Below are positions 21,579-62,663 of a DNA stretch of 64,000 bases, one piece after another. This stretch comes from an uncultured Fimbriimonadaceae bacterium (GTDB taxonomy: Bacteria; Armatimonadota; Fimbriimonadia; Fimbriimonadales; Fimbriimonadaceae), in the NCBI GenBank assembly GCA_964451255.1, contig CAYVHL010000001.1:1161252-1225251 (forward strand). Reading direction: 5' to 3'. Every line of letters starts with the position of its first letter. The first letter of the stretch is position 1. The notes beneath the pieces were generated by a model. That model was given only the letters and a program-made list of their open reading frames with translations, did not search any database and was not told the DNA's origin. A program made the translations under genes and the position numbers.

Positions 21579-23984
21579 ATGCCCATGCCGGAACGGATCT
21601 TGGTGGCCGCGGTCGGCATGGAGAGCCGGGTCGCGGGCTCGGAAGCGGTCTACACCTACACCGCCCGCCCAGGCCTCAAAGTGGGCGACGCCCACCTCGT
21701 CTCGCTGGGGCCGCGCCGGGTCGTGGGCTACATCCTTGACATCTACGAAACATCACCCGAGGATCTTGGTTTTGACCCCGCCCAACTGAAGCCGGTCGGA
21801 CCCCAGGTGCGGGGCATGGAGTTGCCCGAGCCGACCCTCGAACTAGTCAGAGAGGTCGCCCGGCAGACATTGTCTTCTTTGCCGTCCGCCCTTGGCCCTG
21901 CGGTGCCCCCAGGTACCCGCGACCGCCTGGTTGCGACGTGGGAATGGACGGGGAGGATCCCGGAAGAACAGGCGTCTGCCGCCCTGTCTGAGACGCTGCG
22001 GGTTCTGCAGGAGGGCGCAGTGGTGGACACGAAGGCCAAGCCTCTACCGGACGCGACCAAGAGGCACCTGCGCCAATTGGAGAAGATGGGTCTCGCCCGG
22101 GCCGTCATGGCGTTGGCTCCGGCAATAGCAAGGCGGGGAGCGCAGGGCAACTTCCGGCTGACTCCCGACCTAGAGAAGGTCGAACGGTTTCTGTCCGGCC
22201 CGGGCCGCCGCCGGCCGGCCCAATCGATCACCCTCATGCGCCTACAGGGCAGCGAAGCCGCCAGTTTCTCGACGCAGGAGATCAAGACGCTTGGGGGCGG
22301 GACTGACCAAACGGTCAAAGCCCTGGTGGACGCTGGACTGCTCGAACAAGTGGTCGAGGCGCAAAGGCCCGTCAAGCCGCCGACGCCGAACTCCGAACAA
22401 CTGACGGCTATCGCCGCCGTGTCCAGGTCGGTCGCTGACGGGTTGCCTGACACCTTCCTCTTGTTCGGCGTCACGGGATCAGGCAAGACGGAGGTCTATC
22501 TGCGTTGCGCCGAAGAGGCCCTCCGACGGGGGCGGCAAGTCCTCTACCTGGTCCCTGAGATCGCGTTGACCGCCCAGGTCATCGCCCACCTGAGGGCCCG
22601 GTTCGGGCCTCGGGTCGCGGTCCTCCACAGCAACATGACGCCCGCCGAGCGTCTCGAGTCTTGGCTTCGGATCCGGAGCGGCGAAGCCCCGGTTGTGTTG
22701 GGAGCGAGGTCGGCGCTTTTCGCCCCGGTCACCGACCTCGGCCTCATCGTGATGGACGAGGAGCACGAGGCGAGCTACAAACAAGAGAGCGCGCCAAGAT
22801 ATCACAGCAAGCGTCTGGCCCAGTGGATGGCCGGGCACCACGGGTGCCCGTTGGTCCTCGGTTCGGCCACGCCGAGCGTCGAGTCATTCTTCGAGGCGCA
22901 AGCCGGGGAGACCAAGCTCATCAGGCTGACCAAGAGGGCGGCCAGCGCGAAGCTGCCGACTGTCCATTTGGTTGATTTGACCGAGACATACCGCGAACAT
23001 CGTGCCTCGGTTTTCGCGCCGCCACTTCACGAGGCCCTTGGCGAGACCTTGGCGAACGGAACCCAAGCGATCCTGTTTCTCAACCGCCGGGCGTACGCGC
23101 CTTTTGTGGTCTGCCGGGACTGCGGCCACCGCTTCATGTGTCCGCGTTGCGCGGTGGCCTTGTCGTTCCACCGCCGTGAGCGCCGTCTGCGTTGCCACCA
23201 TTGCGACTTTGACTCCCCAGCCCCCGACACCTGTCCAGAATGTACGGGAACCAAAGTGTCAGCCTTCGGGGTCGGGGCAGAGAAGGTCGAGGAGGCGGTC
23301 GCCACCCACTTCCCGACCGCGCGTGTCGCCCGTCTCGACCGTGACGTTGCCCGTCGGAAGGGCGCCCTGGAAGAGATCTTCACAAAGTTCCGTGGCCACG
23401 AGATCGACGTGCTTGTCGGCACGCAGATGGTGGCGAAGGGGCTGGACTTCCCCGATGTCACCCTCGTCGGGGTCATCGCCGCCGACATCTCCTTGAACAT
23501 TCCCGACTTTCGTGCCAGCGAGCGGACGTTCCAACTGCTCTCGCAGGTCGCGGGCCGTGCGGGCCGTGGTGTAAAGCCGGGCCGGGTTTACATCCAGACG
23601 CTCAGCCACGACCACCCGGCAGTTGTCGCCGCCCAGAACCACGACTTCGAACCCCTTTACCGGGCCTTGGTCGAAGAACGCCAGAACGCTGGCTACCCTC
23701 CCTTTTGCCGCCTGGTCAACATTGTCTTCACGAGTCCGTCAAGGACGGAGGTGGTACAGCATTCCGCAGTCGCAGCCCAACGTCTGAGGGTCGCCCTGCC
23801 GACCGCCGAGATCCTGGGCCCGGTCGATTGCGCGTTTGAGCGTCTGCACGAGCAGTGGAGACGCCATGTGCTGATCAAGGTGGCATCGGGCAGCGATCTG
23901 AGGCCCATTCAGGGCGCCGTCAACCACATGCCGTCCAATCGAGTCAAGACAGTGGTCGACGTCGACCCCTACAACATGCTTTGA
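21579..23984 (+). CDS. priA: primosomal protein N' (replication restart helicase PriA)
   Basis: 801 aa. Walker A GVTGSGKTEVY, DEEH box (VMDEEHEASYK) and Cys-rich zinc region CRDCGHRFMCPRC...CHHCDF...CPEC. Confidence 0.95.
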   Translation: MPMPERILVAAVGMESRVAGSEAVYTYTARPGLKVGDAHLVSLGPRRVVGYILDIYETSPEDLGFDPAQLKPVGPQVRGMELPEPTLELVREVARQTLSSLPSALGPAVPPGTRDRLVATWEWTGRIPEEQASAALSETLRVLQEGAVVDTKAKPLPDATKRHLRQLEKMGLARAVMALAPAIARRGAQGNFRLTPDLEKVERFLSGPGRRRPAQSITLMRLQGSEAASFSTQEIKTLGGGTDQTVKALVDAGLLEQVVEAQRPVKPPTPNSEQLTAIAAVSRSVADGLPDTFLLFGVTGSGKTEVYLRCAEEALRRGRQVLYLVPEIALTAQVIAHLRARFGPRVAVLHSNMTPAERLESWLRIRSGEAPVVLGARSALFAPVTDLGLIVMDEEHEASYKQESAPRYHSKRLAQWMAGHHGCPLVLGSATPSVESFFEAQAGETKLIRLTKRAASAKLPTVHLVDLTETYREHRASVFAPPLHEALGETLANGTQAILFLNRRAYAPFVVCRDCGHRFMCPRCAVALSFHRRERRLRCHHCDFDSPAPDTCPECTGTKVSAFGVGAEKVEEAVATHFPTARVARLDRDVARRKGALEEIFTKFRGHEIDVLVGTQMVAKGLDFPDVTLVGVIAADISLNIPDFRASERTFQLLSQVAGRAGRGVKPGRVYIQTLSHDHPAVVAAQNHDFEPLYRALVEERQNAGYPPFCRLVNIVFTSPSRTEVVQHSAVAAQRLRVALPTAEILGPVDCAFERLHEQWRRHVLIKVASGSDLRPIQGAVNHMPSNRVKTVVDVDPYNML

Positions 23985-41323: not shown

Positions 41324-41352
41324 TTGACGTTTCCGTCAGGTTCAAGTACAAT
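41324..41352 (+). promoter_or_regulatory. near-consensus sigma-70-type promoter for the OMP gene
   Basis: TTGACG (41324-41329), a 17-nt spacer, then TACAAT (41347-41352). GGAGGA precedes the ATG at 41408. Confidence 0.4.
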
Positions 41353-41407
41353 ACGGGGGCCTGAGAGATCGAGGCACGTCTGGCTAGACACGGAGGATCA
41401 AAACCGC

Positions 41408-41914
41408 ATGAAAAAGCTTTTCGCCCTGGCCGTCATCGGAGTGGCAGCCATCAGCAACGCCCAGTGGGAGGCACCGACCAATGTAGGAGTGCGTATAGGC
41501 TGGGTTTATCCCATCGACGCAAACTTGCGCGACGTAGCCCCGAATTACATCGGAGCGGGCGTCGATTATTATCCAAATTTCCAGTTGCTTAAAGGCAACG
41601 GCGAGTCTTATATCTCGTTCGACTGGATCGGCAAGTCGGGAAGCGGAGCCAAAGGCAACTTGTTCCCGATCTTGATCAACCACAAGTTCTACGCGGCCGA
41701 CGCAAACCCCAATGAGCCGCGTTCCTACTTCACTCTTGGCGCAGGCGTGGCCATCATTGACGTCAACTCCACCAACACTGTCTTGGCAATCCGTGGCGGC
41801 GTTGGCAGGGAGTTGAGCCAAAACCTCTTCGCCGAAGCCAACCTGCTGTACACCGACGCTTCGGCCGGCGTGCACGGGACGAGCCTCGGCTTCTACTTGG
41901 GCTACCGCTTCTAG
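41408..41914 (+). CDS. small outer-membrane beta-barrel protein (OmpA-beta-barrel/OmpW-like size class)
   Basis: ORF 41324..41914 trimmed to the ATG at 41408 (MKKLFALAVIGVAAISNAQ signal peptide). Alternating amphipathic strands and a C-terminal YLGYRF. Confidence 0.75.
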   Translation: MKKLFALAVIGVAAISNAQWEAPTNVGVRIGWVYPIDANLRDVAPNYIGAGVDYYPNFQLLKGNGESYISFDWIGKSGSGAKGNLFPILINHKFYAADANPNEPRSYFTLGAGVAIIDVNSTNTVLAIRGGVGRELSQNLFAEANLLYTDASAGVHGTSLGFYLGYRF

Positions 41915-41934: not shown

Positions 41935-41968
41935 GGTCAGGGCCGCTCCCAACGGGGCGGCCCTGACC
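41935..41968. terminator. strong hairpin between convergent genes (candidate bidirectional terminator)
   Basis: GGTCAGGGCCGCTCC / GGGGCGGCCCTGACC forms a 15-bp stem (one G-U) with loop CAAC, followed on the + strand by ATTTCTT. Confidence 0.6.
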
Positions 41969-41973
41969 ATTTC

Positions 41974-42711
41974 TTATGCGAGCACTGCCTCCGCGTGTGG
42001 CCGGATCTCGTCGTCAGCCAGGCGTTTGACGCCGTCCTTAGTCAGGATCGCCACCGACGGCAGGTTCTTACGGAAACCTCCCGTGGCCGAGTCCATTTCC
42101 GCCGCGATGTCGAGCAAGGTCAGGCCGTCTTGCAGAACCTCGCCCTCTGGCCTTGTGTGCCAGGGTCCCTTGGTGCGGGAGATGTATTCGAAGACTCCGC
42201 GTATACGCTCCGAGCCGGAACCTGCCGCCGCATAATCTGCGCTGAGAAACCTGCCCCCCGCCGTGTCGAAGAAGTAGACGCCGAACTCACCGCTGGCCGG
42301 GTCAAAGTTCGCGGCGATGGGCACGAAGAGGCCGATCCCTTGCATCGCCATGGGTAGGTTGGAAGCAAGGGCCCGGCTGATCTCCATTAGTTTGCCCTCA
42401 GCCGAGATCTCCACCATGTTCATCCGCTCGTAGTACTTGAATGCGTGCTTTAGGTATCTGCAGACCTCGATGGAGCGGGCATAGGCGCCGCTGATCGCCA
42501 CGACCACCGTGTCGTCCAACGCTTCGATTTTTTCGGCGTGCTCGTACATGATGAGGTTGCCCATCGTCGCACGGCGGTCGGCCATCACCAGGACGCCGTG
42601 CTCAAAGCGCAGCGCGAGCACCGTTGTGCCATGGATTTCGTCAGCGCCGGCGGGCATCTTGCCGAGGTCGAAATTGACGAGATCGGCAAACGTCTTCGGG
42701 CCGCTGGTCAT
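41974..42711 (-). CDS. prcB: proteasome beta-type subunit (Ntn hydrolase)
   Basis: 245 aa. A short propeptide is followed by GTTVLALRFEHGVLVMADRRAT (catalytic Thr context). Its ATG overlaps the stop of the upstream 60-aa gene (ATGA). Confidence 0.85.
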   Translation of the reverse strand: MTSGPKTFADLVNFDLGKMPAGADEIHGTTVLALRFEHGVLVMADRRATMGNLIMYEHAEKIEALDDTVVVAISGAYARSIEVCRYLKHAFKYYERMNMVEISAEGKLMEISRALASNLPMAMQGIGLFVPIAANFDPASGEFGVYFFDTAGGRFLSADYAAAGSGSERIRGVFEYISRTKGPWHTRPEGEVLQDGLTLLDIAAEMDSATGGFRKNLPSVAILTKDGVKRLADDEIRPHAEAVLA

Positions 42712-42890
42712 TGTCCAGACCGCTGCCGGTACTTCTTAGCCTGGTCGGGGTCGACGTTCTTCATGCGGCGCAAAAGCTCGTTTGGCGCCTTGGGGCGGTC
42801 GATGTCCGGCTTGCCTGGCCCGCCGTCGTCCCCAAGTTTGCGCGTGGGTTCTGGCTCGGCCCGTCGTGTAGTCCTGTCAATGTTGATCAT
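42708..42890 (-). CDS. UBact-type prokaryotic ubiquitin-like modifier (Pup homologue)
   Basis: 60 aa, MINIDRTTRRAEPEPTRKLGDDGGPGKPDIDRPKAPNELLRRMKNVDPDQAKKYRQRSGQ. Charged and predicted disordered, with C-terminal ...YRQRSGQ. It sits between a Pup-ligase-family gene and a proteasome subunit. Confidence 0.8.
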   Translation of the reverse strand: MINIDRTTRRAEPEPTRKLGDDGGPGKPDIDRPKAPNELLRRMKNVDPDQAKKYRQRSGQ

Positions 42891-42896
42891 ATTGCC

Positions 42897-44360
42897 TCAG
42901 CCCTGTATGAGTTCGCAGAACTCCTCCCATGATTCTACGTCGGCCAGCCGCGGATTGAACTCGTCGAGAGGCCCAATTCGAAGGTCGACCGGCGCGTGCT
43001 CACCCCGAAAAACGATCGAACCCCAACTCATAGTCTCGATGTGGCGCCCGAACTTTGCCACGGCGATCCCTCTTACCCACGGCCGTGTCCCGAATGCCGC
43101 TGGAATGGGGTTCTCCACGGGGGTATCCGGCTCGCCGTCGACCTCACCGGCCTCCACGATGGCGTCAAAGAGGCTTTCCTCGGAGTTGATGTCGCAATAG
43201 GCAAGGTCAAGCGACTGCATGGCCGTGTGATGCCATGTCAGGCCCTCTGCCTCCCGGTACTGGTCCAGAAGCCAGTGCTTCGCGGCCCAATCCACGTTGC
43301 GCCGGAATCGATCTGGATCGGTGAACCGGGCTTCAAGCAGTTCTCGGCATTCCTTGCTCGTTTGGATGGTCTCTGCGTCGGACTCATCCAACGCCTCGGC
43401 GGCATCGAGATAGGATTCCAGGATCAGACGTGGTGTTGTCCAGCTTGTGCCTTCGAGGTCGACACGACCCTCCCCCGTAAAGTCCCGGCTGACGTCCGCG
43501 ATTGCCCGGACGGGATCCTGTAGCCGCCAGGTCGGCACCGCGTCGGCATCTATGAGCCTTAGCGCCAACTTGACGAGGGCGACCTTGCGCCTGGTGCAGA
43601 CGAACATGCGGTTCGCGTCGCCACAAATCACGTGAAGCCGCACCCAGTGGTTGGGGTCGGCGTGAGGTTCGTCCCGTGTGTTGAACACCGGCCGCCGGTA
43701 GAGGGTCTCGATGTTGGCCGACTCGACGAAAAAGTCGGCTCGTTGGCTCATTTGGAACGGGCACGCGACACCGTGTTCGTGTCCGACTTTGCCTGCGCCG
43801 GTGAGCAGCTGTCGGGTGACGAACAGGGGCAACAGGCAGGCGAACAACTTCTCAAAGCCGACGGAGCGGGGCACAAGATAGCTTTCGTGGGTGCCGTAAG
43901 AAGCGCCGTGAAAGTCCGTGTTGTTCTTGTAGACCTTGGCCGGGCGTCCCGTCTCTTTGCTGAACGCCTCTGCCGCCAGGGCGACGACCGCTTCGCCCGC
44001 TTTGTCGTGCAGAGCCAGTTCATGAGCGGTCAAGCATTCCGGGGTGGAGTACTCCGGGTGCCCATGGTCGTTGTAGAGCCGGGCGCCGTTCGGCAGGACG
44101 CGGTCGGAGCGGACTTCCTGGTCTCCGACACGGTAGTGCCCGGAATCAAACCTGGCGTCTTCCGGATCGTAGGCAAGCTGGTCGACTTTGAATCCGCGCA
44201 AGTCTGACCTTGGCGACTCGAAGCGATAGTCCCAACCGACAAAGCACTCGCCCGGATAACTCCGGACGAGTGCCATTGAATCGTCGATCTGGTCTTCTGC
44301 GCCCCGCCCTTCGACGCTGAGCCCGTATTCGGTCTCAAGCCCGGCCAGGATCGGACGCAT
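42897..44360 (-). CDS. Pup-ligase/deamidase family protein (Dop-like)
   Basis: 487 aa. Motifs LETEYGLSV, NGARLYNDHGHPEYSTPEC, YKNNTD..GASYGTHESY and NTRDEPHAD. The N-terminal insertion WDYRFESPRSDLRGF... resembles the Dop-specific loop region as I recall it. Confidence 0.88.
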   Translation of the reverse strand: MRPILAGLETEYGLSVEGRGAEDQIDDSMALVRSYPGECFVGWDYRFESPRSDLRGFKVDQLAYDPEDARFDSGHYRVGDQEVRSDRVLPNGARLYNDHGHPEYSTPECLTAHELALHDKAGEAVVALAAEAFSKETGRPAKVYKNNTDFHGASYGTHESYLVPRSVGFEKLFACLLPLFVTRQLLTGAGKVGHEHGVACPFQMSQRADFFVESANIETLYRRPVFNTRDEPHADPNHWVRLHVICGDANRMFVCTRRKVALVKLALRLIDADAVPTWRLQDPVRAIADVSRDFTGEGRVDLEGTSWTTPRLILESYLDAAEALDESDAETIQTSKECRELLEARFTDPDRFRRNVDWAAKHWLLDQYREAEGLTWHHTAMQSLDLAYCDINSEESLFDAIVEAGEVDGEPDTPVENPIPAAFGTRPWVRGIAVAKFGRHIETMSWGSIVFRGEHAPVDLRIGPLDEFNPRLADVESWEEFCELIQG

Positions 44361-44365
44361 GCCGC

Positions 44366-45694
44366 TTAGCGGAAGACGACGAAGTCACCCGTGGTGGGGA
44401 ACGGCCAGCCTGTCGGTACGGTCGTTATCGTGAATTTGCCGTCCGCCGGTACCCCGTTGACCATGGTGAAGGTGCCGAGGCTGCCAGTCGCGTTCGTTGT
44501 GGGCGCACCGATCTCCTTGATCGGGTGTAGCGACACCGTGCCTGTCGAGCCGCTCATCGTAGCCGTGCCGAACCAGAGGGCGGAAACACCGGCGCCGCTC
44601 TTGTTGAAGGCCACCACTTGGTGCTGGCCGTTCGCCTTGGTCGTCGGCAGAACCATCATCGTGAAGTCGGGCACGTCGCTCAAGACCTCGGTGTAAGAAC
44701 GCCAGTAACCCTGCAGGGCGGCGATCAGCGTCGCGGTCGGCGGGGTTCCACGGGGATCGGGCTCGTAAACGTTGTATGTGCCTGGAGCAGGTTGCCCAGC
44801 GATCGTGATCGGCGCCGTGAGCGTGCCTGCCTCAACAAAGTTGGGTGAGAAGAGGTCGAACGAGCCGACGGAATTGAATCCTTTGCCAAGCCCCATTTGG
44901 TCGCCAGAGAACATGGCTTTGTCAGCCGAGCCTCCCAACGACATGCTCGGGCGGTCGGCTGCCGCCATCGGCGTCATGTCGAACGTGACAAAGTCGCTGA
45001 GGAACCCGGGGACGGCGGTGATTCCACCCGGCAGGTTTTCATTGTTCCATCCGTTCTGGTCGAACAGGATCTGCCCCGGCGGCCCCGGATCGAAGCTCAG
45101 GCTGGCATCGTTGATGTAAACCTGGACAGTCGTCTGCCGACCCGGAACGAGAGTGGCGTCGATCGGCATGGCGGGAAGAGCGACAGGCAAGCCGTTATAA
45201 AGTGAGAACACGTTGCCGAACTGGTCTTCAATGCCCCAGTCCCATGCCTCCATATAGAGTTGCGAGAAGTGTTTGGCGGCGACACCCGTGCCCAAGTCTT
45301 GGGTAAAGGACGCGTTGTTGACCGAATAGCCACCCAGGTTGCACTGGATGCCGGCCAAAGACCCCTGAAACACCGTCGGTACGACGTCGATCAGGCCGTT
45401 GCCCCACCGGAAAACGTTCAGCGTGACGTGGTTGTCACCAGAGCTACGTCGTCCCTGCCCAGACAGGATCACGATGTTCGCCTGGGCGTTTCGGCTTGGC
45501 AGGTTTACGGTGGCCAGTTGGCGAGATCCGGTGGATCCCGTGCTACCACCCGATGTCGACCCTGTCGACCCGATAATGCCCCCGTTGCCTCCGTTGCAAC
45601 CCACGACGATGGCACCGGCCACGAATGCGATTAGCCACTTCTTCAAAGCTAGCTCCCTTGTCCCCGGCCTCGCTGTGGCCTCCGCCACACACAC
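44366..45694 (-). CDS. hypothetical lipoprotein
   Basis: 442-aa ORF. A likely alternative TTG start at 45646 is preceded by AAGGGAG. Lipobox AIVVGC is followed by a Gly/Ser/Thr linker and a beta-rich body. Its stop lies 5 nt from the Dop-like gene start. Confidence 0.7.
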   Translation of the reverse strand: MCVAEATARPGTRELALKKWLIAFVAGAIVVGCNGGNGGIIGSTGSTSGGSTGSTGSRQLATVNLPSRNAQANIVILSGQGRRSSGDNHVTLNVFRWGNGLIDVVPTVFQGSLAGIQCNLGGYSVNNASFTQDLGTGVAAKHFSQLYMEAWDWGIEDQFGNVFSLYNGLPVALPAMPIDATLVPGRQTTVQVYINDASLSFDPGPPGQILFDQNGWNNENLPGGITAVPGFLSDFVTFDMTPMAAADRPSMSLGGSADKAMFSGDQMGLGKGFNSVGSFDLFSPNFVEAGTLTAPITIAGQPAPGTYNVYEPDPRGTPPTATLIAALQGYWRSYTEVLSDVPDFTMMVLPTTKANGQHQVVAFNKSGAGVSALWFGTATMSGSTGTVSLHPIKEIGAPTTNATGSLGTFTMVNGVPADGKFTITTVPTGWPFPTTGDFVVFR

Positions 45695-48407: not shown

Positions 48408-49727
48408 TCAACCCAGCCCGGTCAAAGCCCCGTCGCCGCAGTAGTCGCGGTTGCCAAAGGACTTCACGTCGTGTCCGAACCCCTGGGCCAAGGCCATGAG
48501 CAAGCGGTTGTGGGGGACCCTGTCGTACTGTAGAGACCGACCGGTATTGAACCCTAGTCCCCCGCCGACCATGACGAACGGGATGTTGTCCAGTGTGTGG
48601 GAATTGCCCTGCCCAAGCTCGTTCGTCCACAGGACGGTCGTGTGGTCGAGCATCGATCCGTCGCCACCCGGCTCGGGCGTCTCCGACAGCCGTTTGGCCA
48701 AGTAGGCTAGTTGCTCGCAGTACCACTTGTTGATCTTGGTGAGTTTTTCTTGCGAGTCGGCGTCACTGTCGGGTTTGTGGGAGAGATCGTGCTGGCCTTC
48801 CTTGATGTCGAGCCAGGTGAAGCGGGCCTGTCCGACGGAGTTCGTGTATTGCAACGTCGCTACCCGGGTGGCGTCTTCTTGGAACGCGCTGACCATTAGG
48901 TCGATCTGAAGCTTGCTGAGCGTCGGGATGTTGTCGTTGTGACGTCGGACGCCCGGCTCGATCGGCGGCACCGCGTGGCCCACCGATGCCTTGCGGGCGG
49001 ACTGGATGTCTTGTTCAAGATCACGGACGGCGGTCAGATGCTGGTCGAGCAAGTGCTCGTCCTCCTTGGCGATGACACCCCTGACCTTGTTGATGTCCTC
49101 CCTCAAGTCGTCTAGGACGCTACTGAGAACTTCGCGGCCCTTCATCTGGCCGTGGATCTTGTTGAACATCAAATAGGGGTCGTCGACCGGGGCGACGGGC
49201 CGGTTCGGCCCCGCATAGACCATACGTGTCCAAGTGTCCGCATGGTCGGGGACCATGACTCCGAACTCCAACGAACCGAATCGCGTCCGGGTCTCCGGTG
49301 ACTTCTGTAAGAAGTCCTTGATCTCTTGGTCGATCGATATGCCGCTCGACCATCCGGCTGGCGTGTCGGAGCCGCCTTGCACGTTGCCAGGGAAGAGTTC
49401 GATGCCCGTCAACAAGCAGCCGATGCCCCGCATATGGCCGTCTCCGTCTCCCCGGATGCGGTCGCAGACGCCTTTCAAGACCAGCGTCTTGTCCTTGAAC
49501 GGGGCAAGGGGCGTCAAGCTCTCTTTGAGGTTGAACGCGGATCCCGCTTGATCGGGCCAAAAAGTGTCAGGCACGATTCCGTCGGGGCTGAATATGATCA
49601 CCAGTCGCTGCTTCCGCTTGGCAGTACCAAACGTCGCCCCTAGGCTAGGCAATCCCAGCAGGTATGGCGTCGCCACCGCTCCGATCCCCAGGTTTTTCAA
49701 GACCTGTCTGCGTGTGGTTTCTCTCAT
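48408..49727 (-). CDS. DUF1552 domain protein (Tat-signal)
   Basis: 439 aa. N-terminal [22 protein letters not shown]. Its start overlaps the stop of the upstream DUF1592-type gene (ATGA), the usual pairing. Confidence 0.88.
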
Positions 49728-52009
49728 GTCCGCCTCGAGGCCGTCGTCGCGATCTGCACCAACAGTTCCCTCATATTGTAGTCGGCATTCTTGAACTTGG
49801 TGACCAAGTCGGACAACGCCGTCTGCCCATAAGCGCGGACCGGCTCCTTGGTGATGTACTGGAACAGTTTTTCCACGAACGCGGCCTGGGCCTCGTCGCT
49901 GGTCGCCAGATAGGCGGCAAGATCGCCGGCGTTCTTGAACATGACCGTCGTACCGGCCTTTGTCTTGTAGTGTCCGGATGTGTCGACCGGCTTGCCGTTG
50001 TCGGACTTCCGCACCCTGCCGATCGCGTCGTACTCTTCAAAGGTGAAGCCGATCGGGTTGATGAGCGCATGGCAAGAGCTGCACGGGGTGTTCTTGGTCT
50101 GTAGCGCAACCCGCTCGCGGGTGGTCAGGTTCGGGTGCAGGCTCGCCGCGGCCGGGGCGGTAGCGACGGGCGGCGGCGCGAGGACGCGGCCCAGCATGTT
50201 CCTTACGACCAAGACCCCTCGGTGGATGGGCGAGCTTCCGTCCAGATAGGCATACCGCGCCATCACGTAGGGCTGGGTCAACAGGCCGGATCGGCCCGGG
50301 GCCCGCAAAGCTTGAAACGGCGCTCCAGCAGGCAAGCCGCCTCCATAGACTTTGGCCAGACGCCCGTTCCAGTACACCTTGTCGCTGAGCATCATCTCGC
50401 GGTAGTCAGCCTTGGGCCCCCACGCGACCTCCCTAAGGAACAGATCCAGGGAAGTCCGCAGGTCGCCGACCGTGGACTCGTCGAAGCCGGGGAACTTCTT
50501 GCTATCTTTGACGACGTCGGGGATCTCGTCAAGCCTTAGCCAGTGCATCAGGAAGTCTCGAAACTTGCTCAACGCGCGGGGGTCGTCGGCCATCCGACGG
50601 GCCTGCTTCTCGACAGCCCCCCTGTCTTTGAGCTCCCCTGCCGCCGCCGCGCGAAGCAGCTCCGGGTCGGGCAGGCTGTCCCACAGGGCGAACGAGAGGT
50701 CGGCGGCGTTCTTGTACGGATCGTCCGAGGAACCGATCTCGCGGTATAGGAACCGGGGAGACATCAGCGCCAAGACGACGGCACGCTTGATCGAAGCCGA
50801 CAGATCCGGTGAGTTCGCGAACTGCTTGTCTATGTAGCGCCTTTCCGTCTCCGCATCAAGGGGTTGCCGGAAGGCTCGCACGACGAACTGCTTGGCCAAG
50901 GCCTTCGCTTCTTGGGGGTCTTTCAGTTGATCGTCTTTAGCCGACCGGATGACTTGGTCGGCCACTTCGACGGCGGCACGGCCCAGCGCCTCGTCCCACT
51001 GCGGGCTGATCGAGCTGCCCCGCGCGTATCCGGTGCTGCTGTCGTCGGCCGGAAACGCGGTCTGCACGACATAGGTCGGGTCGTTGCCAGACGTTGACAG
51101 ATAGACCGACGGGATCACTTCGTCGGCCCCTTTGGGTGGCCTCCACAACAAGCGGATGAACGCCGGGGTGGCCTCGGTCTTGTTCAGCTTCTCGTCTTGT
51201 ACGCCCTGGATCCACTTCTTGAACTCGACATACACCGGATAGGCCCGGCCAGCCAGCATGCTGACCGTGGCCCTGAACTCTGTCTGGTTGCCTGAGCGGA
51301 CCAAGGCGTCGACGGTGGGGACAGGACTGCCGTTGAAGTAGAGGGCGGCCGCTTGGTCGGTCTCCAAGATCAGGTCGAAGTCGCCGGTGTCTGGAGCTAC
51401 AATGGCTCCGCTCCAGGTCACGAGGTAAGCCTTTGCGTCCACGTCGCCGGGTTCTGGCCCCGCCTTAGAAAAGTGGAAGTCCAGCTGGCGGTCGACACGC
51501 TCTATCTTGCGGTCCTTCTTCTTGGCTTCCTTCCCTGAGAAGTACTTCCCGTTAAGGCCGTTTTGTCCAGGGTTGACGGCGGCATGGTAGTCGCCGACAA
51601 GATCGGCGACGGCGTTCTTGAGTTGGCGGACGGTCAGTCGCTGCAACGCGATCCGGGCCGGCCGGTTCCTTTCTTGTGCGAGAGGCGAGTAGAACGCTTC
51701 GTACATGTACGCCGCCACGGCCCTGGCTTCAGCAACCGAGGCATGTCTTGGCCCTGGCGGCATGTTCTTAGCGATGAAGGCGCCCAGCTCCTCTTGGGTG
51801 AGCTTGCCGGCCAAGGGGCCGGAATAGCCCGGCCCGCCCGCGCCTGCCTCACCATGGCAAGGGGCGCATGTCTTTGCGAAGAGTCCCTTGCCCGTTAGGA
51901 ACGCCTTGGACTGTGGCGGGTCTTGCCGGCCCGGCACGGCCAGAGCGACGACGAGTGGCGCCACACTAAGAGCGGTGACTGTCAGCCGTCGCCAATCCGT
52001 CCTCACCAT
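49724..52009 (-). CDS. multi-domain DUF1592/DUF1595/DUF1587/DUF1588/DUF1585-type protein with CxxCH motifs
   Basis: 761 aa. Signal peptide, heme-binding-type CAPCHGE near the N-terminus and [13 protein letters not shown] near the C-terminus. Confidence 0.88.
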
Positions 52010-52604: not shown

Positions 52605-52741
52605 GGCCTTTCGGGCCGAGGTGAACGGGTTATCGCGCCGGGGGTTCGAATCCCTCCTGGCAAGGACGGCTTCCCAGCTTGACTTGCCAGTAGCTCAGGG
52701 GTAGAGCACGAACGGCCGTCACGGCACTTGCCCGAAGGGCC
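52605..52741 (+). ncRNA. YrlA-class bacterial Y RNA candidate (permuted tRNA-like domain on a bulged stem)
   Basis: Base pairs read directly from the sequence. T arm 52640-52656 with loop TTCGAAT. 7-bp closed acceptor-like stem CTGGCAA (52657-52663) / TTGCCAG (52684-52690). TA at the U8/A9 positions. D arm GCTC-AGGGGTA-GAGC (52693-52707). Anticodon-stem equivalent 52709-52713 pairs with 52629-52635. A 7-bp helix with a bulged A (52621-52628 / 52716-52722). A 12-bp helix 52605-52616 / 52730-52741. It lies 50 nt upstream of rsr on the same strand. The true 5' and 3' ends are unknown. Confidence 0.7.
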
Positions 52742-52791: not shown

Positions 52792-54363
52792 ATGAGGTTC
52801 ACCAGGCACTTCGCCGTAAAGAAGACATCACAGTCCCGGCCCGTGCCGGGAAAGGGACAGGCCGCCAACTCAGCGGGCGGCTTCGTGTTCGAGGTCGACG
52901 AGTGGAAACTGCTCGACCGATTTCTGACACTGGGCACCGAGGGGGGCACCTACTACATCAGCGAGCAGGACTTGACCATGGAGCAGGCGCAGAACGCGTT
53001 GGCCCTCGTCAAGAGCCAGGGCGAGAAGGTCGTCGAAAGGGTCGCCCAGGTCAGCCGCTCGGGGAGATCCCCTAAGGCCGACCCAGGGTTGTTCGTTCTC
53101 GCGATGGCCGCCTCGTTCGGGGAACTCGAGACCCGACGCGCGGCGTTCGCCGCGTTGCCCAAGGTCGCGCGCACCGGCACGCATCTGTTCCAGTTCGTCG
53201 CCGAGTGCGAGCGACTGCGTGGATGGGGCAGGGCCATGCGCACGGCCGTCGGGCGTTGGTACAACGAAGCCGACGCGGGCGACGTCGCCTACCAGGCGAT
53301 GAAGTACCAGCAGCGCGGCGGCTGGGGCCATCGCGACCTGTTGCGCCTCGCCCACCCTAAGCCGGTGGACGAAGCCCACAAGGTGGTCTACAAGTGGATC
53401 GTCGACGGCGAGTTGATCGGGCCGCAGCCTCGCATCGAAGCCTTTGAGCGCTTGAAGAGGACGGCAGAGGCGACCGAGGCGGCCAGGCTCGTCAGCGAGT
53501 TCGACCTGCCCCGCGAATGTGTTCCCAGCCAGTTGCTCAACAGCCCTGAAGTGTGGGACGCCCTGCTGGCCAATATGCCGATGACGGCGATGGTCCGCAA
53601 CCTGGGCAATATGTCCAAGGTCGGGCTGCTTACCGTCGGGTCGGACGCCTCGAAGGAGGTCGTGCGTCGGCTGGGTGACCTCAAGAGGCTGAAGGCGGCG
53701 CGTGTCCACCCGGTCGCGTTGCTGATGGCGCTCAAGGTCTATCGGCAGGGGCACGGGTTGCGCGGCTCGGGCCAATGGGAAGCCGTCCCCGCTGTGGTCG
53801 ACGCCCTGGACGCCGCCTTCTACAAGGCGTTTGAGACCGTCGAGCCAAGCGGGAAGCGGTTCGTGCTGGGCATCGACGTCTCCAGTTCAATGGCATGGTC
53901 GACCGTGGCGGGGACGCCGCTCACCGCATGCGAGGCGGCGACCACGATGGCCATGGTGACGCTGGCGGCCGAGGAAGAAGTGAGCCCGATGGCGTTCGCG
54001 GACGAGTTCCGCAAGGTACCGCTGTCGAAGCGCATGAGCCTGGACGACGCGATGCGCCACACCCAGGCACGGAACTTCGGCGGCACCGACTGCGCGTTGC
54101 CCATGTTGTGGGCGATGAAGAACAAGGTCAAGGCGGACGCCTTCGTCGTCTACACGGACAACGAGACTTGGTTCGGTGAGACCCACCCGTTCCAAGCGTT
54201 ACAAGAATATCGACAGAGGACCGGGATCCCGGCCAAGTTGGCTGTCGTGGGGATGTGTGCCAACCGGTTCACCGTCGCCGACCCGTCCGACCCCGGCATG
54301 CTGGACTTCGTCGGCTTCGACGCCGCGGTTCCTCAAGCTCTACGGGAGTTTGTGACCGCATAG
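52792..54363 (+). CDS. rsr: Ro 60-kDa autoantigen orthologue (Rsr; TROVE + vWA domains)
   Basis: 523 aa. N-terminal TROVE region (GGFVFEVDEWKLLDRFLTLGTEGGTYYISEQ) and a C-terminal vWA with MIDAS motif GIDVSSSM. GAAGGAG RBS upstream. Confidence 0.92.
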   Translation: MRFTRHFAVKKTSQSRPVPGKGQAANSAGGFVFEVDEWKLLDRFLTLGTEGGTYYISEQDLTMEQAQNALALVKSQGEKVVERVAQVSRSGRSPKADPGLFVLAMAASFGELETRRAAFAALPKVARTGTHLFQFVAECERLRGWGRAMRTAVGRWYNEADAGDVAYQAMKYQQRGGWGHRDLLRLAHPKPVDEAHKVVYKWIVDGELIGPQPRIEAFERLKRTAEATEAARLVSEFDLPRECVPSQLLNSPEVWDALLANMPMTAMVRNLGNMSKVGLLTVGSDASKEVVRRLGDLKRLKAARVHPVALLMALKVYRQGHGLRGSGQWEAVPAVVDALDAAFYKAFETVEPSGKRFVLGIDVSSSMAWSTVAGTPLTACEAATTMAMVTLAAEEEVSPMAFADEFRKVPLSKRMSLDDAMRHTQARNFGGTDCALPMLWAMKNKVKADAFVVYTDNETWFGETHPFQALQEYRQRTGIPAKLAVVGMCANRFTVADPSDPGMLDFVGFDAAVPQALREFVTA

Positions 54364-59407: not shown

Positions 59408-59426
59408 TTGCACTTTTTAAGTGCAA
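59408..59426. repeat. AT-rich inverted repeat TTGCACTT-TTT-AAGTGCAA (terminator or operator candidate)
   Basis: Perfect 8-bp arms, 14 nt after the GNAT stop and about 100 nt upstream of the next gene. Confidence 0.5.
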
Positions 59427-59522
59427 GTTGTGCCTGGTGATCTTGCCTGGTCAGGTTCAAAATGTTTGCCGTCAACAACTGGCTCAGTTTGGTTTAGCCT
59501 CAAAACTGGCTACACTGAACGT

Positions 59523-62500
59523 ATGCAGTTCAGACTGGGACGGGTCGCGACGTTGGCGGGAAGCGCGGGTGCCCTCGCAGTTGCCGTCGCAGTACCCACG
59601 AGCCAGCGGGCGAAGGCTCCGAAGGTCGAGTTCAACCGCGACGTCCGGGTGATCCTGTCCAACTGCATGGCGTGCCACGGCCCGAGTTCAGGGGAGGGCA
59701 TGGGCGGCCTCCGTCTCGACGCGTTCGACACCGCCACCAAGACCCTGCCCGACGGCAAGCGGGCGATCGTGCCGGGGAAGCCTGGCGAGAGCGAGCTCCT
59801 GAAACGGGTCGAATCGAAAGACCCTGGCTACATGATGCCGCCTCCGGAGTCGCACAAGACGGTCTCCAAGGATCAGATCCAAACCTTGCGCGACTGGATC
59901 GCGGAAGGCGCCCAGTACAAGGAGCATTGGGCGTTCGTCAAACCCGTCCGCCCCGCCTTGCCCGAGGTCCAGGACAAGAACTGGCCCAAGAACGACATCG
60001 ACTACTTTGTCCTCGCCAACCTTGAGAGCCACGGCCTGAAACCGGAGCCCGAGGCCGACAGGGCGACCCTGATCCGTCGCGTGTCCCTGGACTTGACCGG
60101 GCTTCCGCCGACCCCGGGCGAAGTCGAAGCTTTCGTCAACGACCAGTCGCCGAAGGCATACGAAAAGGTCGTCGACCGACTGCTCGCCTCGCCCCGGTAC
60201 GGGGAACGCATGGCGATGGATTGGATGGACTACTCCCGCTATGCGGACAGCAACGGCTATCAAGCGGACTACGAGCGATACCAGTCGCGATGGCGCGATT
60301 GGGTGATCGACGCCTTCAACAAGAACATGCCGTACGACGAGTTCACGGTGGACCAGATCGCCGGCGACCTCCTGCCCCACGCGACGATGGAACAGCGGCT
60401 GGCCACCGGGTTCAACCGCAACCACCGGATCAACACGGAAGGCGGGGTCATCCCCGAAGAGTGGCGGGTCGAGACGGTCATCGACCGCGTCGACACGACG
60501 TCGGCCATCTGGCTCGGCCTCACGGTCGGCTGCGCCCGGTGCCACGACCACAAGTTCGACCCGGTGAGCCAGAAGGACTTCTATCGGCTCTTCGCGTTTT
60601 TCAACAATGTCCCCGAATCCGGCACGGGCGTCGAACGGCCAGTCAACCATCCGCCGGTCATGGACGCGCCGACTCCGGCCCAGACGGCGAAAATGGCCCA
60701 TTACGACCGGGCGATCAAGGAACTGGGCGCCTGGTTGGACAAGGAAGCAGCCAAGCGAGAGGATGTCGCCGCCGATTGGCGGCCAAAGAACCTCCTCGGG
60801 GCCGTCACAAACGGCCTGGTGGAACGGTTCGCTTTCACCAAGGGCGGTAGCAAGGCGGGGTCGAACAATGGCGGCGTGGCCTATGAGCCGGGACGGGCGA
60901 CGGGGGCCGTCGTCACTGACGACAAGTCGTTCGTCGATCTCGGAGGCGTCGCCGACTTTGAGCGCGACCAACCGTTCAGCTTTTCGCTGTGGATCAAGCC
61001 CAAGAACGGTGAGGGCTCCCCCCTGTCCCGCATGGATTCGAACGACGCTTTCCGGGGTTGGGAGTGTTCGCTCAGCGACGGCCGACCGCAAGCCCATATC
61101 ATCAACAAATGGCCGGACAACGCCGTCAAGGTCTCCGCGAAAGACGTAAAGCTACCTAACGACCGGTGGAGCCACCTCGTCGTCACATACGACGGTTCGT
61201 CCAAGGCTGCCGGAATGAAGATGTACGTGGACGGCCAGCCGGTCGCCGTCAACGTCGACAACGACAACCTGAACCAGACCGTTCGAACCAAGGTCACGAC
61301 CAAGGTCGGCCGACGTACGAACAGCGAGACCTTCACCGGCGCCGTGGACGACGTCGCTATCTTCAACCGAGTGTTGACGCCGGAAGAAGCCGCCACCTTA
61401 GCCTCCACGTCTCCCGCTCTACCGTTGGTCTCGATCGACAAGGGTAAGCGCACTCCTAGCCAGCGGCTCGACTTGGCCCGCTACTACTGTCTGGCCCATG
61501 ACGACCAGTTCGCGGCTCGTGACAGGCAACGGGCGGACGTGGCCGCGCGAAGGGAAGAACTCAAAGCGGAGATTCCTAACGTGATGGTCATGGAAGAGAT
61601 GCCGAAGCCGCGTGACTGCTACGTCCTTGTTCGGGGCCAATACGACAAGCACGGTGAGAAAGTGACGGCCGGGCTACCGTCATTCCTGCCGCCGATGCCC
61701 AAGGGGCAGCCTGAGAACCGGCTCGGTCTGGCGAGGTGGATCGTCTCCCCGGACAACCCGCTCACAGCCCGTGTCACCGTCAACCGCATGTGGGCGCGTT
61801 TCTTCGGGGCCGGGATCGTGGGGACGATCGAAGATTTCGGCACAAGAGCGGACTACCCGAACAACCCTGAACTCCTTGATTGGCTTGCGACCGAGTTCCT
61901 GCGGCTCAAATGGGATCTCAAGGGGATGATGAAGGAGATCGCCATGAGCGCCTCCTATCGCCAATCCTCGAACATCACCGCCGAGAAACTCGAGGCAGAC
62001 CCTGAGAATAAGATGATCTGTCGTGGGCCACGGTTCAGGTTGCAAGGCGAGGTCATTCGCGACCAGGCCCTTTTTGTCAGCGGGCTGCTGGTCGAAAAGC
62101 TAGGCGGCCCGTCCGTCCGGCCCTATATGCCGCCTGGCATCTGGGACGAGACAAACATGTATGGGAACCTCCGCGATTACAAGCACGACATCGGGCCCGG
62201 GCTCTATCGCCGAAGCCTTTACACGATCTGGAAGCGCACCGCCGCCCCGCCAAACATGCTCTTGTTCGACGTGCCGTCACGCGAGACCTGCCGGATGATG
62301 CGGGCGAGGACGGACACGCCGCTCCAGGCCCTTACTCTGATGAACGACGAGACGTACATCGAAGCGGCACGTGTTCTGGCGCAGAGAATGCTCAAGGAAG
62401 GGGGGTCGACGCCGGAGTCGCGCCTGACCTACGGGTTCCAACTGGTCATGTGCCGCAAACCGACGGACGCGGAGGTCAAGTTGCTCGCCGACGGAGTGGC

Positions 62501-62663
62501 TAAGAGGGCCGAGAAATTCCGGGCAGACCCTGCCGCAGAAGCCGGCATCCTCGGTGAAGGCGTCTCCCCAGTCCCCGACAAGTTGGACAAGTCTGAGCTT
62601 GCCGCTTACACCATAGCGGCCAGCGCGTTGCTCAACACCGACGAAGCGATCACAAAGGAGTAA
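59523..62663 (+). CDS. PSCyt1/DUF1549/LamG/DUF1553 (PSD1) multi-domain protein
   Basis: ORF 59421..62663 trimmed to the ATG at 59523 (MQFRLGRVATLAGSAGALAVAVA signal). CMACHG (CxxCH) and CARCHDHKFDP motifs. LamG-like insert (WSHLVVTYDG...VDDVAIFNRVLT). Confidence 0.9.
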   Translation: MQFRLGRVATLAGSAGALAVAVAVPTSQRAKAPKVEFNRDVRVILSNCMACHGPSSGEGMGGLRLDAFDTATKTLPDGKRAIVPGKPGESELLKRVESKDPGYMMPPPESHKTVSKDQIQTLRDWIAEGAQYKEHWAFVKPVRPALPEVQDKNWPKNDIDYFVLANLESHGLKPEPEADRATLIRRVSLDLTGLPPTPGEVEAFVNDQSPKAYEKVVDRLLASPRYGERMAMDWMDYSRYADSNGYQADYERYQSRWRDWVIDAFNKNMPYDEFTVDQIAGDLLPHATMEQRLATGFNRNHRINTEGGVIPEEWRVETVIDRVDTTSAIWLGLTVGCARCHDHKFDPVSQKDFYRLFAFFNNVPESGTGVERPVNHPPVMDAPTPAQTAKMAHYDRAIKELGAWLDKEAAKREDVAADWRPKNLLGAVTNGLVERFAFTKGGSKAGSNNGGVAYEPGRATGAVVTDDKSFVDLGGVADFERDQPFSFSLWIKPKNGEGSPLSRMDSNDAFRGWECSLSDGRPQAHIINKWPDNAVKVSAKDVKLPNDRWSHLVVTYDGSSKAAGMKMYVDGQPVAVNVDNDNLNQTVRTKVTTKVGRRTNSETFTGAVDDVAIFNRVLTPEEAATLASTSPALPLVSIDKGKRTPSQRLDLARYYCLAHDDQFAARDRQRADVAARREELKAEIPNVMVMEEMPKPRDCYVLVRGQYDKHGEKVTAGLPSFLPPMPKGQPENRLGLARWIVSPDNPLTARVTVNRMWARFFGAGIVGTIEDFGTRADYPNNPELLDWLATEFLRLKWDLKGMMKEIAMSASYRQSSNITAEKLEADPENKMICRGPRFRLQGEVIRDQALFVSGLLVEKLGGPSVRPYMPPGIWDETNMYGNLRDYKHDIGPGLYRRSLYTIWKRTAAPPNMLLFDVPSRETCRMMRARTDTPLQALTLMNDETYIEAARVLAQRMLKEGGSTPESRLTYGFQLVMCRKPTDAEVKLLADGVAKRAEKFRADPAAEAGILGEGVSPVPDKLDKSELAAYTIAASALLNTDEAITKE

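Follow-up and report, generated by a model that had tools for sequence, protein, structure and literature searches.

In Mycobacterium tuberculosis the genes of the Pup-proteasome system are laid out as mpa-dop-pup-prcB-prcA ... pafA. UBact was reportedly described by Lehmann and co-workers in 2017, together with Dop, proteasome subunits, Mpa and PafA, in Gram-negative phyla that are said to include the Armatimonadetes. To our knowledge, UBact is a Pup relative defined by bioinformatics, and we know of no published biochemistry or other experimental work on it. Armatimonadetes are found among the Gram-negative subclusters of both alpha and beta proteasome subunits (Fuchs et al., 2017; PMC5666114). 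Here we analyse a UBact locus in a stretch of 64,000 nucleotides from an uncultured Fimbriimonadaceae bacterium (contig CAYVHL010000001.1; the whole stretch is called the window below), in which the genes for a lipoprotein, a Dop-type enzyme, UBact and a proteasome beta subunit follow one another on the minus strand. The UBact system itself is known; the Armatimonadetes loci of Lehmann (2017) aside, we found no description in the literature of the Fimbriimonadia arrangement, a lipoprotein-Dop-UBact-beta operon together with an orphan, unannotated alpha gene. The locus is, we think, probably the conserved core operon of a UBact-proteasome system, derived from a six-gene cluster whose other parts have been dispersed.

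The block opens with the lipoprotein gene (44366..45694, minus strand, 442 aa), whose product has a signal peptide and a lipobox, and continues on the same strand with the gene for the Dop-type enzyme of the Pup-ligase family (42897..44360, 487 aa), recognized by Pfam, NCBIfam and PDB matches and by an AlphaFold2 (AF2) model. The gene for UBact, the Pup-family modifier (42708..42890, 60 aa), and that for the 20S proteasome beta subunit (41974..42711, 245 aa) complete it. A first-pass annotation of the letters had described the last three as packed minus-strand open reading frames (ORFs) joined by a 6-nt gap and an ATGA overlap, correctly in coordinates and in lengths. Six nucleotides separate the stop codon of the enzyme gene from the start codon of UBact (TGA GGCAAT ATG), the GAGG Shine-Dalgarno-like motif of UBact overlaps the stop codon of the gene upstream, and the reading frames of UBact and beta overlap in ATGA.

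The assignment of the 60-aa protein to the UBact type is borne out by profile hidden Markov model searches, in which it scores 75.7 bits against PF20513 (cutoff 27.8) and 73.3 bits against NF033388 (cutoff 35). The ORF ends in VDPDQAKKYRQRSGQ, as had been read from the letters, and the C-terminus of the protein (...KKYRQRSGQ) has the R[ST]G[EQ] tail with a terminal Gln; its gene is flanked by the Dop-type gene and by the beta gene. The ORF is conserved in relatives: the tail VDPDQAKKYRQRSG[Q/E] hardly varies among 120 homologue clusters, of which 84 have Q and 36 have E as the last residue. The RSG[Q/E] tail is the most conserved segment of the protein, and the N-terminal half also holds invariant residues. 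No significant covariation was detected between the terminal Q or E and residues of the adjacent enzyme (75 species; smallest p 0.0015 in 894 tests). The gene had been thought easy for gene callers to miss; public data already contain it as a called gene with the label UBact.

The 487-aa protein carries the motifs ETEYG, NGARLYNDHGHPEYSTPEC and NTRDEPHAD, and matches the Pfam family Pup_ligase with an E value of 5e-128. The earlier reading of this protein as a Dop-like enzyme with a Dop loop finds support in alignments to Dop and PafA sequences of the PDB, in the predicted alpha-loop and in fold comparison. The PDB match to Dop (277 bits) spans the full length, Dop loop included, and that to PafA (166 bits) begins only at residue 85; in the alignment, the AcDop loop finds a counterpart in residues about 36-84 (WDYRFESPRSDLRGF against WDFEEENPLRDARGF) and none in PafA. 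Among the NCBIfam models, Dop (TIGR03688) gives 352.7 bits and PafA (TIGR03686) 262.9 bits, both below the equivalog cutoffs of 492.3 and 551.3; the Dop of a complete Armatimonadota cluster (locus L090, see below) likewise falls short of the TIGR03688 cutoff, at 473.5 bits. The GhExE motif, the catalytic Asp and the nucleotide-binding motifs are present, and 62 family members show no variation in LETEYG, YNDHGHPEY (with D98), SQRADF, NTRDEPHAD and RLHVI.GDAN.

Table 1 of Hecht et al. (2020; PMC7947786) lists twenty-one positions that discriminate Dop from PafA; at these the enzyme shows a mosaic of residues that is conserved in its family. It is Dop-like at V32, V/I88, H99, P107, F210, E/D218, R222 and S445 and in having no PafA insertion, and PafA-like at S85 and at E213, the equivalent of the functionally important E177 of PafA (Hecht et al., 2020; PMC7947786). 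Residues 28 and 105 are polymorphic (Ala/Ser), R84, N97, G100 and Y/F221 are specific to the family, and the TT pair common to Dop and PafA is replaced by T219-L220. Two features of PafA are missing, namely the Val insertion and the Gly-Ser after the catalytic Asp, so that the enzyme has DHGH rather than DVGSH. The AF2 model, built from the 62 family sequences, has a mean predicted local distance difference test (pLDDT) score of 90.8 and predicts no helix in the alpha-loop (residues 204-223), which is a loop in Dop and a helix in PafA (Hecht et al., 2020; PMC7947786). Moreover, the template-modelling (TM) scores of the model are 0.82-0.86 to Dop and 0.73-0.77 to PafA. The enzyme signature defines an Armatimonadota subfamily in an exhaustive search of 1.84 billion representative proteins; a looser 'NDH' group takes in Latescibacterota and Chloroflexota and is followed in turn by the canonical Dop of actinobacteria. 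Judged by these alignments and by the model, the protein is a Dop-type enzyme and a predicted UBact deamidase/depupylase, although its mosaic character means that it may also have ligase activity.

The third gene, taken earlier for a proteasome beta subunit with a propeptide, encodes what its residues mark as a catalytically intact 20S beta subunit. It matches PF00227 with 78.5 bits (cutoff 22.4) and scores below the cutoff of TIGR03690 (20S_bact_beta; 129.5 bits, cutoff 191.9), yet this is its best-scoring NCBIfam model; its best PDB matches are the beta subunits of Rhodococcus (83 bits) and M. tuberculosis (80 bits). A propeptide of 28 residues precedes the mature N-terminus at Thr29 (...HG followed by TTVLAL), and D45 and K61 correspond to Asp17 and Lys33. 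Thr1, Asp17 and Lys33 are invariant in 77/77 orthologues, the Gly at position -1 is found in 73 of the 77 (Ala in 4), and the GSGS and DSATGG motifs are at least 90% conserved in the same set. A homologue of the HslV, Anbu or BPH type was also considered for this gene and rejected: TIGR03690 is the best model, HslV reaches only 24-30 bits and the best PDB matches are 20S beta subunits.

We show that the block is conserved well beyond this genome. A scan of one genome per species with the UBact alignment gave 164 matching genomes, and the conservation counts that follow come from the best 80 of these, all of them Armatimonadota. A Dop-like gene adjoins UBact in 73 of the 75 species loci in which this could be judged, and the beta gene does so in 74/74; in all of them the genes of the block are spaced by -4 to about +20 nt. 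Both the enzyme and UBact have their closest homologues in Fimbriimonadaceae/Fimbriimonadales, including the cultured Fimbriimonas ginsengisoli (57% identity). Measured against the nearest relative, the enzyme gene has a ratio of nonsynonymous to synonymous substitution rates (dN/dS) of 0.083, UBact one of 0.063 and beta one of 0.059, and all three genes are under strong purifying selection. These values, together with the conservation, indicate that the locus is functional and not decaying.

Nor does the locus hold only these three genes and 'nothing else', as had been stated: the lipoprotein gene is a conserved fourth member. In 62 of the 64 species loci that allow a judgement it immediately precedes the Dop-like gene, and its stop codon is placed -4 to +21 nt from the start of the Dop-like gene in 67/68 loci, the gap in the window being 5 nt. 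That the upstream gene encodes a lipoprotein had been recognized earlier; the signal peptide, the VVGC lipobox and a Gly/Ser/Thr-rich linker are all kept in the orthologues, and an alternative start at 45646 would give a protein of 426 aa. The lipoprotein has no Pfam, NCBIfam or PDB match, and a single-sequence AF2 model is unusable (pLDDT 36). Its gene sits where Mpa stands in full clusters. We considered the lipoprotein as a functional replacement of Mpa and rejected it, because the signal peptide and the lipobox mark an exported protein.

Two observations may be recorded beside these counts. Two Armatimonadota loci, L045 (10001-10923) and L077 (10001-10908), have UBact (with the RSGQ end) and beta and no adjacent Dop-like gene, and in both a conserved 780-aa ORF without Pfam match follows beta; they fit a progressive dispersal of the cluster. 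Also, typical Fimbriimonadaceae-type UBact operons, with their synteny, occur in assemblies named after unrelated organisms, among them Synechococcus sp. UW140 (L008), Methyloversatilis discipulorum (L024), Kamptonema cortianum GCA_030163865.1 (L181) and several 'Chthonomonas sp.' UBA metagenome-assembled genomes (MAGs), which suggests mis-binning or contaminating co-cultured Armatimonadota.

The locus had been judged truncated in comparison with the order Mpa-Dop-UBact-beta-alpha-PafA, and this is so. A complete cluster of Mpa-type AAA, Dop, UBact, beta, alpha and PafA genes is present in the Armatimonadota locus L090, the Dop-like enzyme of which is about 44% identical to the window enzyme and has the same signature, and the same six genes are clustered on the Nitrospirota contig L091. 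In a tree of beta subunits, L090 is sister to the entire clade with reduced loci. In the window, a lipoprotein gene and no Mpa/ARC AAA ATPase gene is found directly upstream of dop, and no alpha and PafA genes directly downstream of beta, where the operon ends at a hairpin and faces an outer-membrane protein (OMP) gene. As first noted, an AAA ATPase, a second Pup-ligase paralogue and an alpha subunit are all missing from the 64-kb window; a tblastn and Pfam survey of 20 large ORFs revealed no paralogue of the three genes and no AAA ATPase or Mpa, and alpha, PafA and Mpa were not detected in the window at any threshold.

The first-pass annotation asked, from this, whether a beta-only particle is functional and which protein ligates the modifier. 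A beta-only particle as a property of the organism is not supported, since the clade keeps unlinked, unannotated alpha genes. With L090 probes, alpha genes were found in two members of the reduced clade. That of L037 is an ORF that runs up to the start codon of the Dop-like gene, and that of L065, a Fimbriimonadales MAG with a deeply nested position in the clade, shares a contig with beta and begins 9.2 kb downstream of it; the region from beta to alpha in L065 has no synteny with its neighbours. A metagenome scan with the Armatimonadota alpha alignment gave 80 loci, most of them with full clusters. Seven of the loci (L092-L098), those with the greatest similarity to the alpha of L037, hold orphan alpha genes, with no other gene of the system within ±10 kb; the identity of these orphans to the L065 alpha fragment is 61-78%, and that of the L090 alpha 53%. 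A tree of alpha subunits groups the orphans with the L037 alpha in one clade, sister to the full-cluster alphas, which mirrors the beta tree. An alpha profile that included L091 was dominated, among the 120 matches listed, by Nitrospirales alphas and is uninformative on Fimbriimonadaceae.

One of the orphans (P0596; L093/L174, 10001-10684) is NCBI entry HRF59075.1, a 'hypothetical protein [Fimbriimonadaceae bacterium]', whose gene adjoins proS in the MAG GCA_035440005.1 with no other gene of the system nearby. The priA product of that contig is 53% identical to that of the window, and for confirmed Fimbriimonadaceae the figure is 53-59%. The orphan alphas, of 225-238 aa, score 78-84 bits against TIGR03691 and the in-cluster alpha 75 bits; they are labelled 'hypothetical' because these scores fall under the cutoff of 139. 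By similarity and tree position, the alpha subunit is kept in the reduced clade as an unlinked gene.

A single enzyme as a property of the organism is likewise not supported, because an orphan PafA orthologue exists in a related lineage. In L096/L175, a lineage within the orphan-alpha clade, an orphan PafA-like gene lies 2.5 kb from alpha (L096 13114-14589, protein P0609; L175 10001-11476). Its product and that of the PafA-like gene of L090 (13444-14916) share YxDAVG[DS]HxEYAT and have no Dop loop, and in the Armatimonadota PafA-like proteins the otherwise nearly universal NTRDEPHAD is replaced by NP[RK]W[DE]xYY, whereas the Nitrospirota PafA (L091) keeps NTRDEPHAD. These shared peculiarities make the orphan an orthologue of the L090 PafA. 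Conceivably, the Armatimonadota PafA-like proteins have altered or lost catalytic activity, as the replaced motif may suggest. The reduced operon and an orphan alpha or PafA were sought in one assembly through P0219 and P0214, which map to different assemblies and contigs. As a separate observation, priA (window 21579-23984) lies within 1.6-18 kb of the reduced operon in the window, L057 and L181, and 6-8 kb from the orphan alpha (L172-L174) and from the orphan PafA-like gene (L175), so that the dispersed parts may share one broad chromosomal neighbourhood.

The Fimbriimonadia cluster, then, has probably been broken up rather than reduced to three proteins. Since the clade keeps alpha as an unlinked gene, the lack of a gene at the locus says little about the rest of the genome. 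On the strength of that clade-wide retention, this genome very probably has an alpha gene of its own; for PafA the chances are slightly better than even, and for Mpa they are somewhat less than even. By analogy with the actinobacterial Pup system, the Dop-type enzyme would deamidate Gln60 of UBact to Glu and would also strip UBact from conjugates, a PafA-type ligase encoded elsewhere would join the gamma-carboxylate of Glu60 to substrate lysines, and the tagged proteins would be degraded by a 20S particle that combines an orphan alpha with the beta of the operon. The enzyme activities, the partners in this genome and the route by which substrates would be delivered and unfolded are inferred.

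Several points weigh against such a dispersed system. Alpha, PafA and Mpa were not seen in the window or in the 46 species loci with at least 9 kb on both flanks, so that their presence in this genome is extrapolated from relatives, and a search of about 2 Mb of reduced-clade sequence yielded no Mpa-type ATPase. The lineage of the orphan PafA is somewhat more distant, the priA product of L175 being only 48% identical to that of the window, and need not possess the reduced operon. Moreover, NTRDEPHAD is missing from the Armatimonadota PafA-like proteins, which makes their ligase activity uncertain, and E213, the equivalent of PafA Glu177, together with the lost Thr of the TT pair, makes a purely Dop-like activity of the window enzyme uncertain as well.

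Of the alternatives, a truly minimal system fares best, although we consider it unlikely. It would have neither PafA nor Mpa, the mosaic enzyme would, like the proposed Dop/PafA ancestor, both deamidate UBact-Gln and ligate UBact-Glu, and degradation would proceed without a dedicated Mpa unfoldase. A second Pup-ligase paralogue and Mpa are indeed lacking in the window and within ±10 kb in the 80 species loci, but alpha is demonstrably retained unlinked in the clade and the orphan PafA orthologue is found in a related lineage. The same type of enzyme accompanies Q-ending and E-ending UBact without covariation, and species with an E-ending UBact need no deamidase. It is established, however, that actinobacteria with Pup-Glu also retain Dop, as a depupylase. 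At the level of residues, the PafA-type Glu at the E177 position, the Ser at position #6 and R84, N97 and G100 next to the catalytic Asp count for this reading, but the predicted alpha-loop is of the Dop type and not a PafA helix, the fold is closer to Dop and the Dop loop is kept, which disfavours ligase activity (Hecht et al., 2020; PMC7947786). Still, a Dop variant that retains the Dop loop can run a mixed reaction, pupylating directly from Pup-Gln, and single-copy homologues occur in some Planctomycetes (Hecht et al., 2020; PMC7947786). That this particular genome has no PafA and no Mpa, and that a bifunctional deamidase-ligase serves a 20S particle of orphan alpha and beta fed by an Mpa-independent route, is improbable; if true, the mosaic enzyme would be a present-day equivalent of the promiscuous ancestor of Dop and PafA that Hecht et al. 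(2020; PMC7947786) postulated.

A second alternative dispenses with conjugation. UBact and beta would then be a functional pair, with UBact as a non-covalent adaptor, an assembly factor or a gate and the enzyme modulating its C-terminus. The adjacency of UBact and beta, seen in 74/74 loci, is the most invariant feature of the block, L045 and L077 have the two genes without an adjacent Dop-like gene, and the N-terminal half of UBact holds invariant residues. The segment that is most conserved is, however, the RSG[Q/E] tail, which in Pup is used for conjugation, a Dop-like gene is adjacent in 73/75 loci, and the enzyme of L045 and L077 may be unlinked, as alpha is elsewhere in the clade; we hold this possibility to be very unlikely. 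Finally, a non-functional, decaying remnant or duplicate of a complete cluster, which the first-pass annotation had allowed for, might explain why three of the six canonical genes are missing and why neither the enzyme nor beta reaches its NCBIfam equivalog cutoff, but it deserves almost no credence and is effectively refuted by the conservation data, given dN/dS of 0.06-0.08 for all three genes, catalytic residues of beta invariant in 77 orthologues and enzyme motifs invariant in 62 members, intact and tightly coupled ORFs in more than 70 species, and proteins of the full L090 cluster that also fall below the same cutoffs.

The surroundings of the operon were described largely correctly. The GC-rich hairpin (41935..41968), which separates the beta gene from the convergent OMP gene (41324-41914, plus strand), is real: it has 15 pairs, a folding free energy (dG) of -40.8 kcal/mol and a z score of -5.4. 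It had been taken for the end of the operon; its T-tract is on the plus strand only, and formally it is therefore the terminator of the OMP gene, although it probably acts as a bidirectional terminator. The host is a diderm, as had been proposed, with bamA, tamB, lpxC and lpxD all within the window. Elsewhere in the window, a full-length match to the Rfam family YrlA (Y RNA-like) was found at 52609-52740 on the plus strand (37.5 bits against a gathering threshold of 69; E 7.7e-06 in a 3.8-kb search); it is sub-threshold and goes undetected at the gathering threshold. It lies 51 nt upstream of a gene for a Ro60/TROVE and vWA protein (52792-54363, plus strand), and the two make up the classic bacterial Rsr/Y-RNA pairing. 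The window of this Armatimonadota genome also contains Planctomycete-type PSCyt/PSD multidomain proteins (48408-52009, minus strand; 59421-62663, plus strand), with DUF1592/1588/1585, cbb3-type cytochrome c and PA14 domains and with DUF1549/DUF1553 and Laminin_G_3 domains, and likewise a DUF1552 protein.

In the Fimbriimonadia (at least 160 species genomes), the genes for Dop, UBact and beta form a compact operon that is highly conserved, and the remaining parts of the system are unlinked. A judgement from the locus alone gives a false picture of a beta-only, single-enzyme system, and the alpha subunits are systematically mis-annotated as hypothetical in this group, under the NCBIfam cutoffs. 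The enzymes provide a natural series of variants at the positions that separate hydrolase from ligase. If Mpa is truly absent, the question arises of how the 20S proteasome is fed. Current understanding is not overturned by these data, which offer a useful lead for the pupylation field.

The locus may be compared with several known systems. HslV, Anbu and BPH (Fuchs et al., 2017; PMC5666114) are, as here, Thr1 Ntn-hydrolases whose gene has no alpha gene beside it, but the window protein is, by its best-scoring model, a genuine 20S beta subunit and its cognate alpha family occurs in the same clade. Plesiocystis and Rhodopirellula have single-ligase Pup systems without proteasome, with ligases that carry an insertion of four transmembrane segments (Iyer et al., 2008; PMC2588565). 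These systems and those of Planctomycetes resemble the window in having one Pup-ligase-family gene next to the modifier gene; unlike them, the window locus belongs to a group in which beta is always adjacent, and its enzyme is of the soluble Dop type. The Chloroflexota-type loci (L086 10001-13397; L087/L088 10001-13505) comprise a Dop-like gene, an ORF of 66-86 aa that ends in PQPGGE and for which the precomputed annotation records no Pfam match, and another Pup-ligase paralogue; within ±10 kb no proteasome genes were found. Like the window, they have an enzyme of the looser 'NDH' Dop-like group, whose gene is followed directly by a small modifier ORF; they differ from it in having two enzymes, no beta and the PQPGGE tail.

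With the actinobacterial Pup system the window has in common a glutamine-synthetase-fold enzyme of the Dop type, with Dop loop and catalytic Asp (D98 here), a disordered modifier ending in Gly-Gln or Gly-Glu, and a Thr1 Ntn-hydrolase beta subunit whose best PDB matches are those of Rhodococcus and M. tuberculosis. In contrast, the window modifier ends in RSGQ and not GGQ, the host is a diderm, the enzyme is about 33-35% identical to Dop and a mosaic at the Dop/PafA positions, and the genes are dispersed, with no Mpa found. A further comparison is with the UBact clusters of Gram-negative bacteria, represented by L090 and L091. Relative to these, the window has a lipoprotein gene in the place of Mpa, with alpha and PafA outside the operon, the orphan alpha of its clade has 225-238 aa where the in-cluster alpha has 254 aa, and its UBact has 60 aa where theirs have 65-71 aa. 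Window and clusters nonetheless share the modifier family, with its ...YRQR[ST]G[EQ] tail, a Dop-type enzyme is likewise encoded directly upstream of UBact and beta directly downstream, and the L090 enzyme shares with that of the window the R84, N97, G100, E213 and T-L signature.

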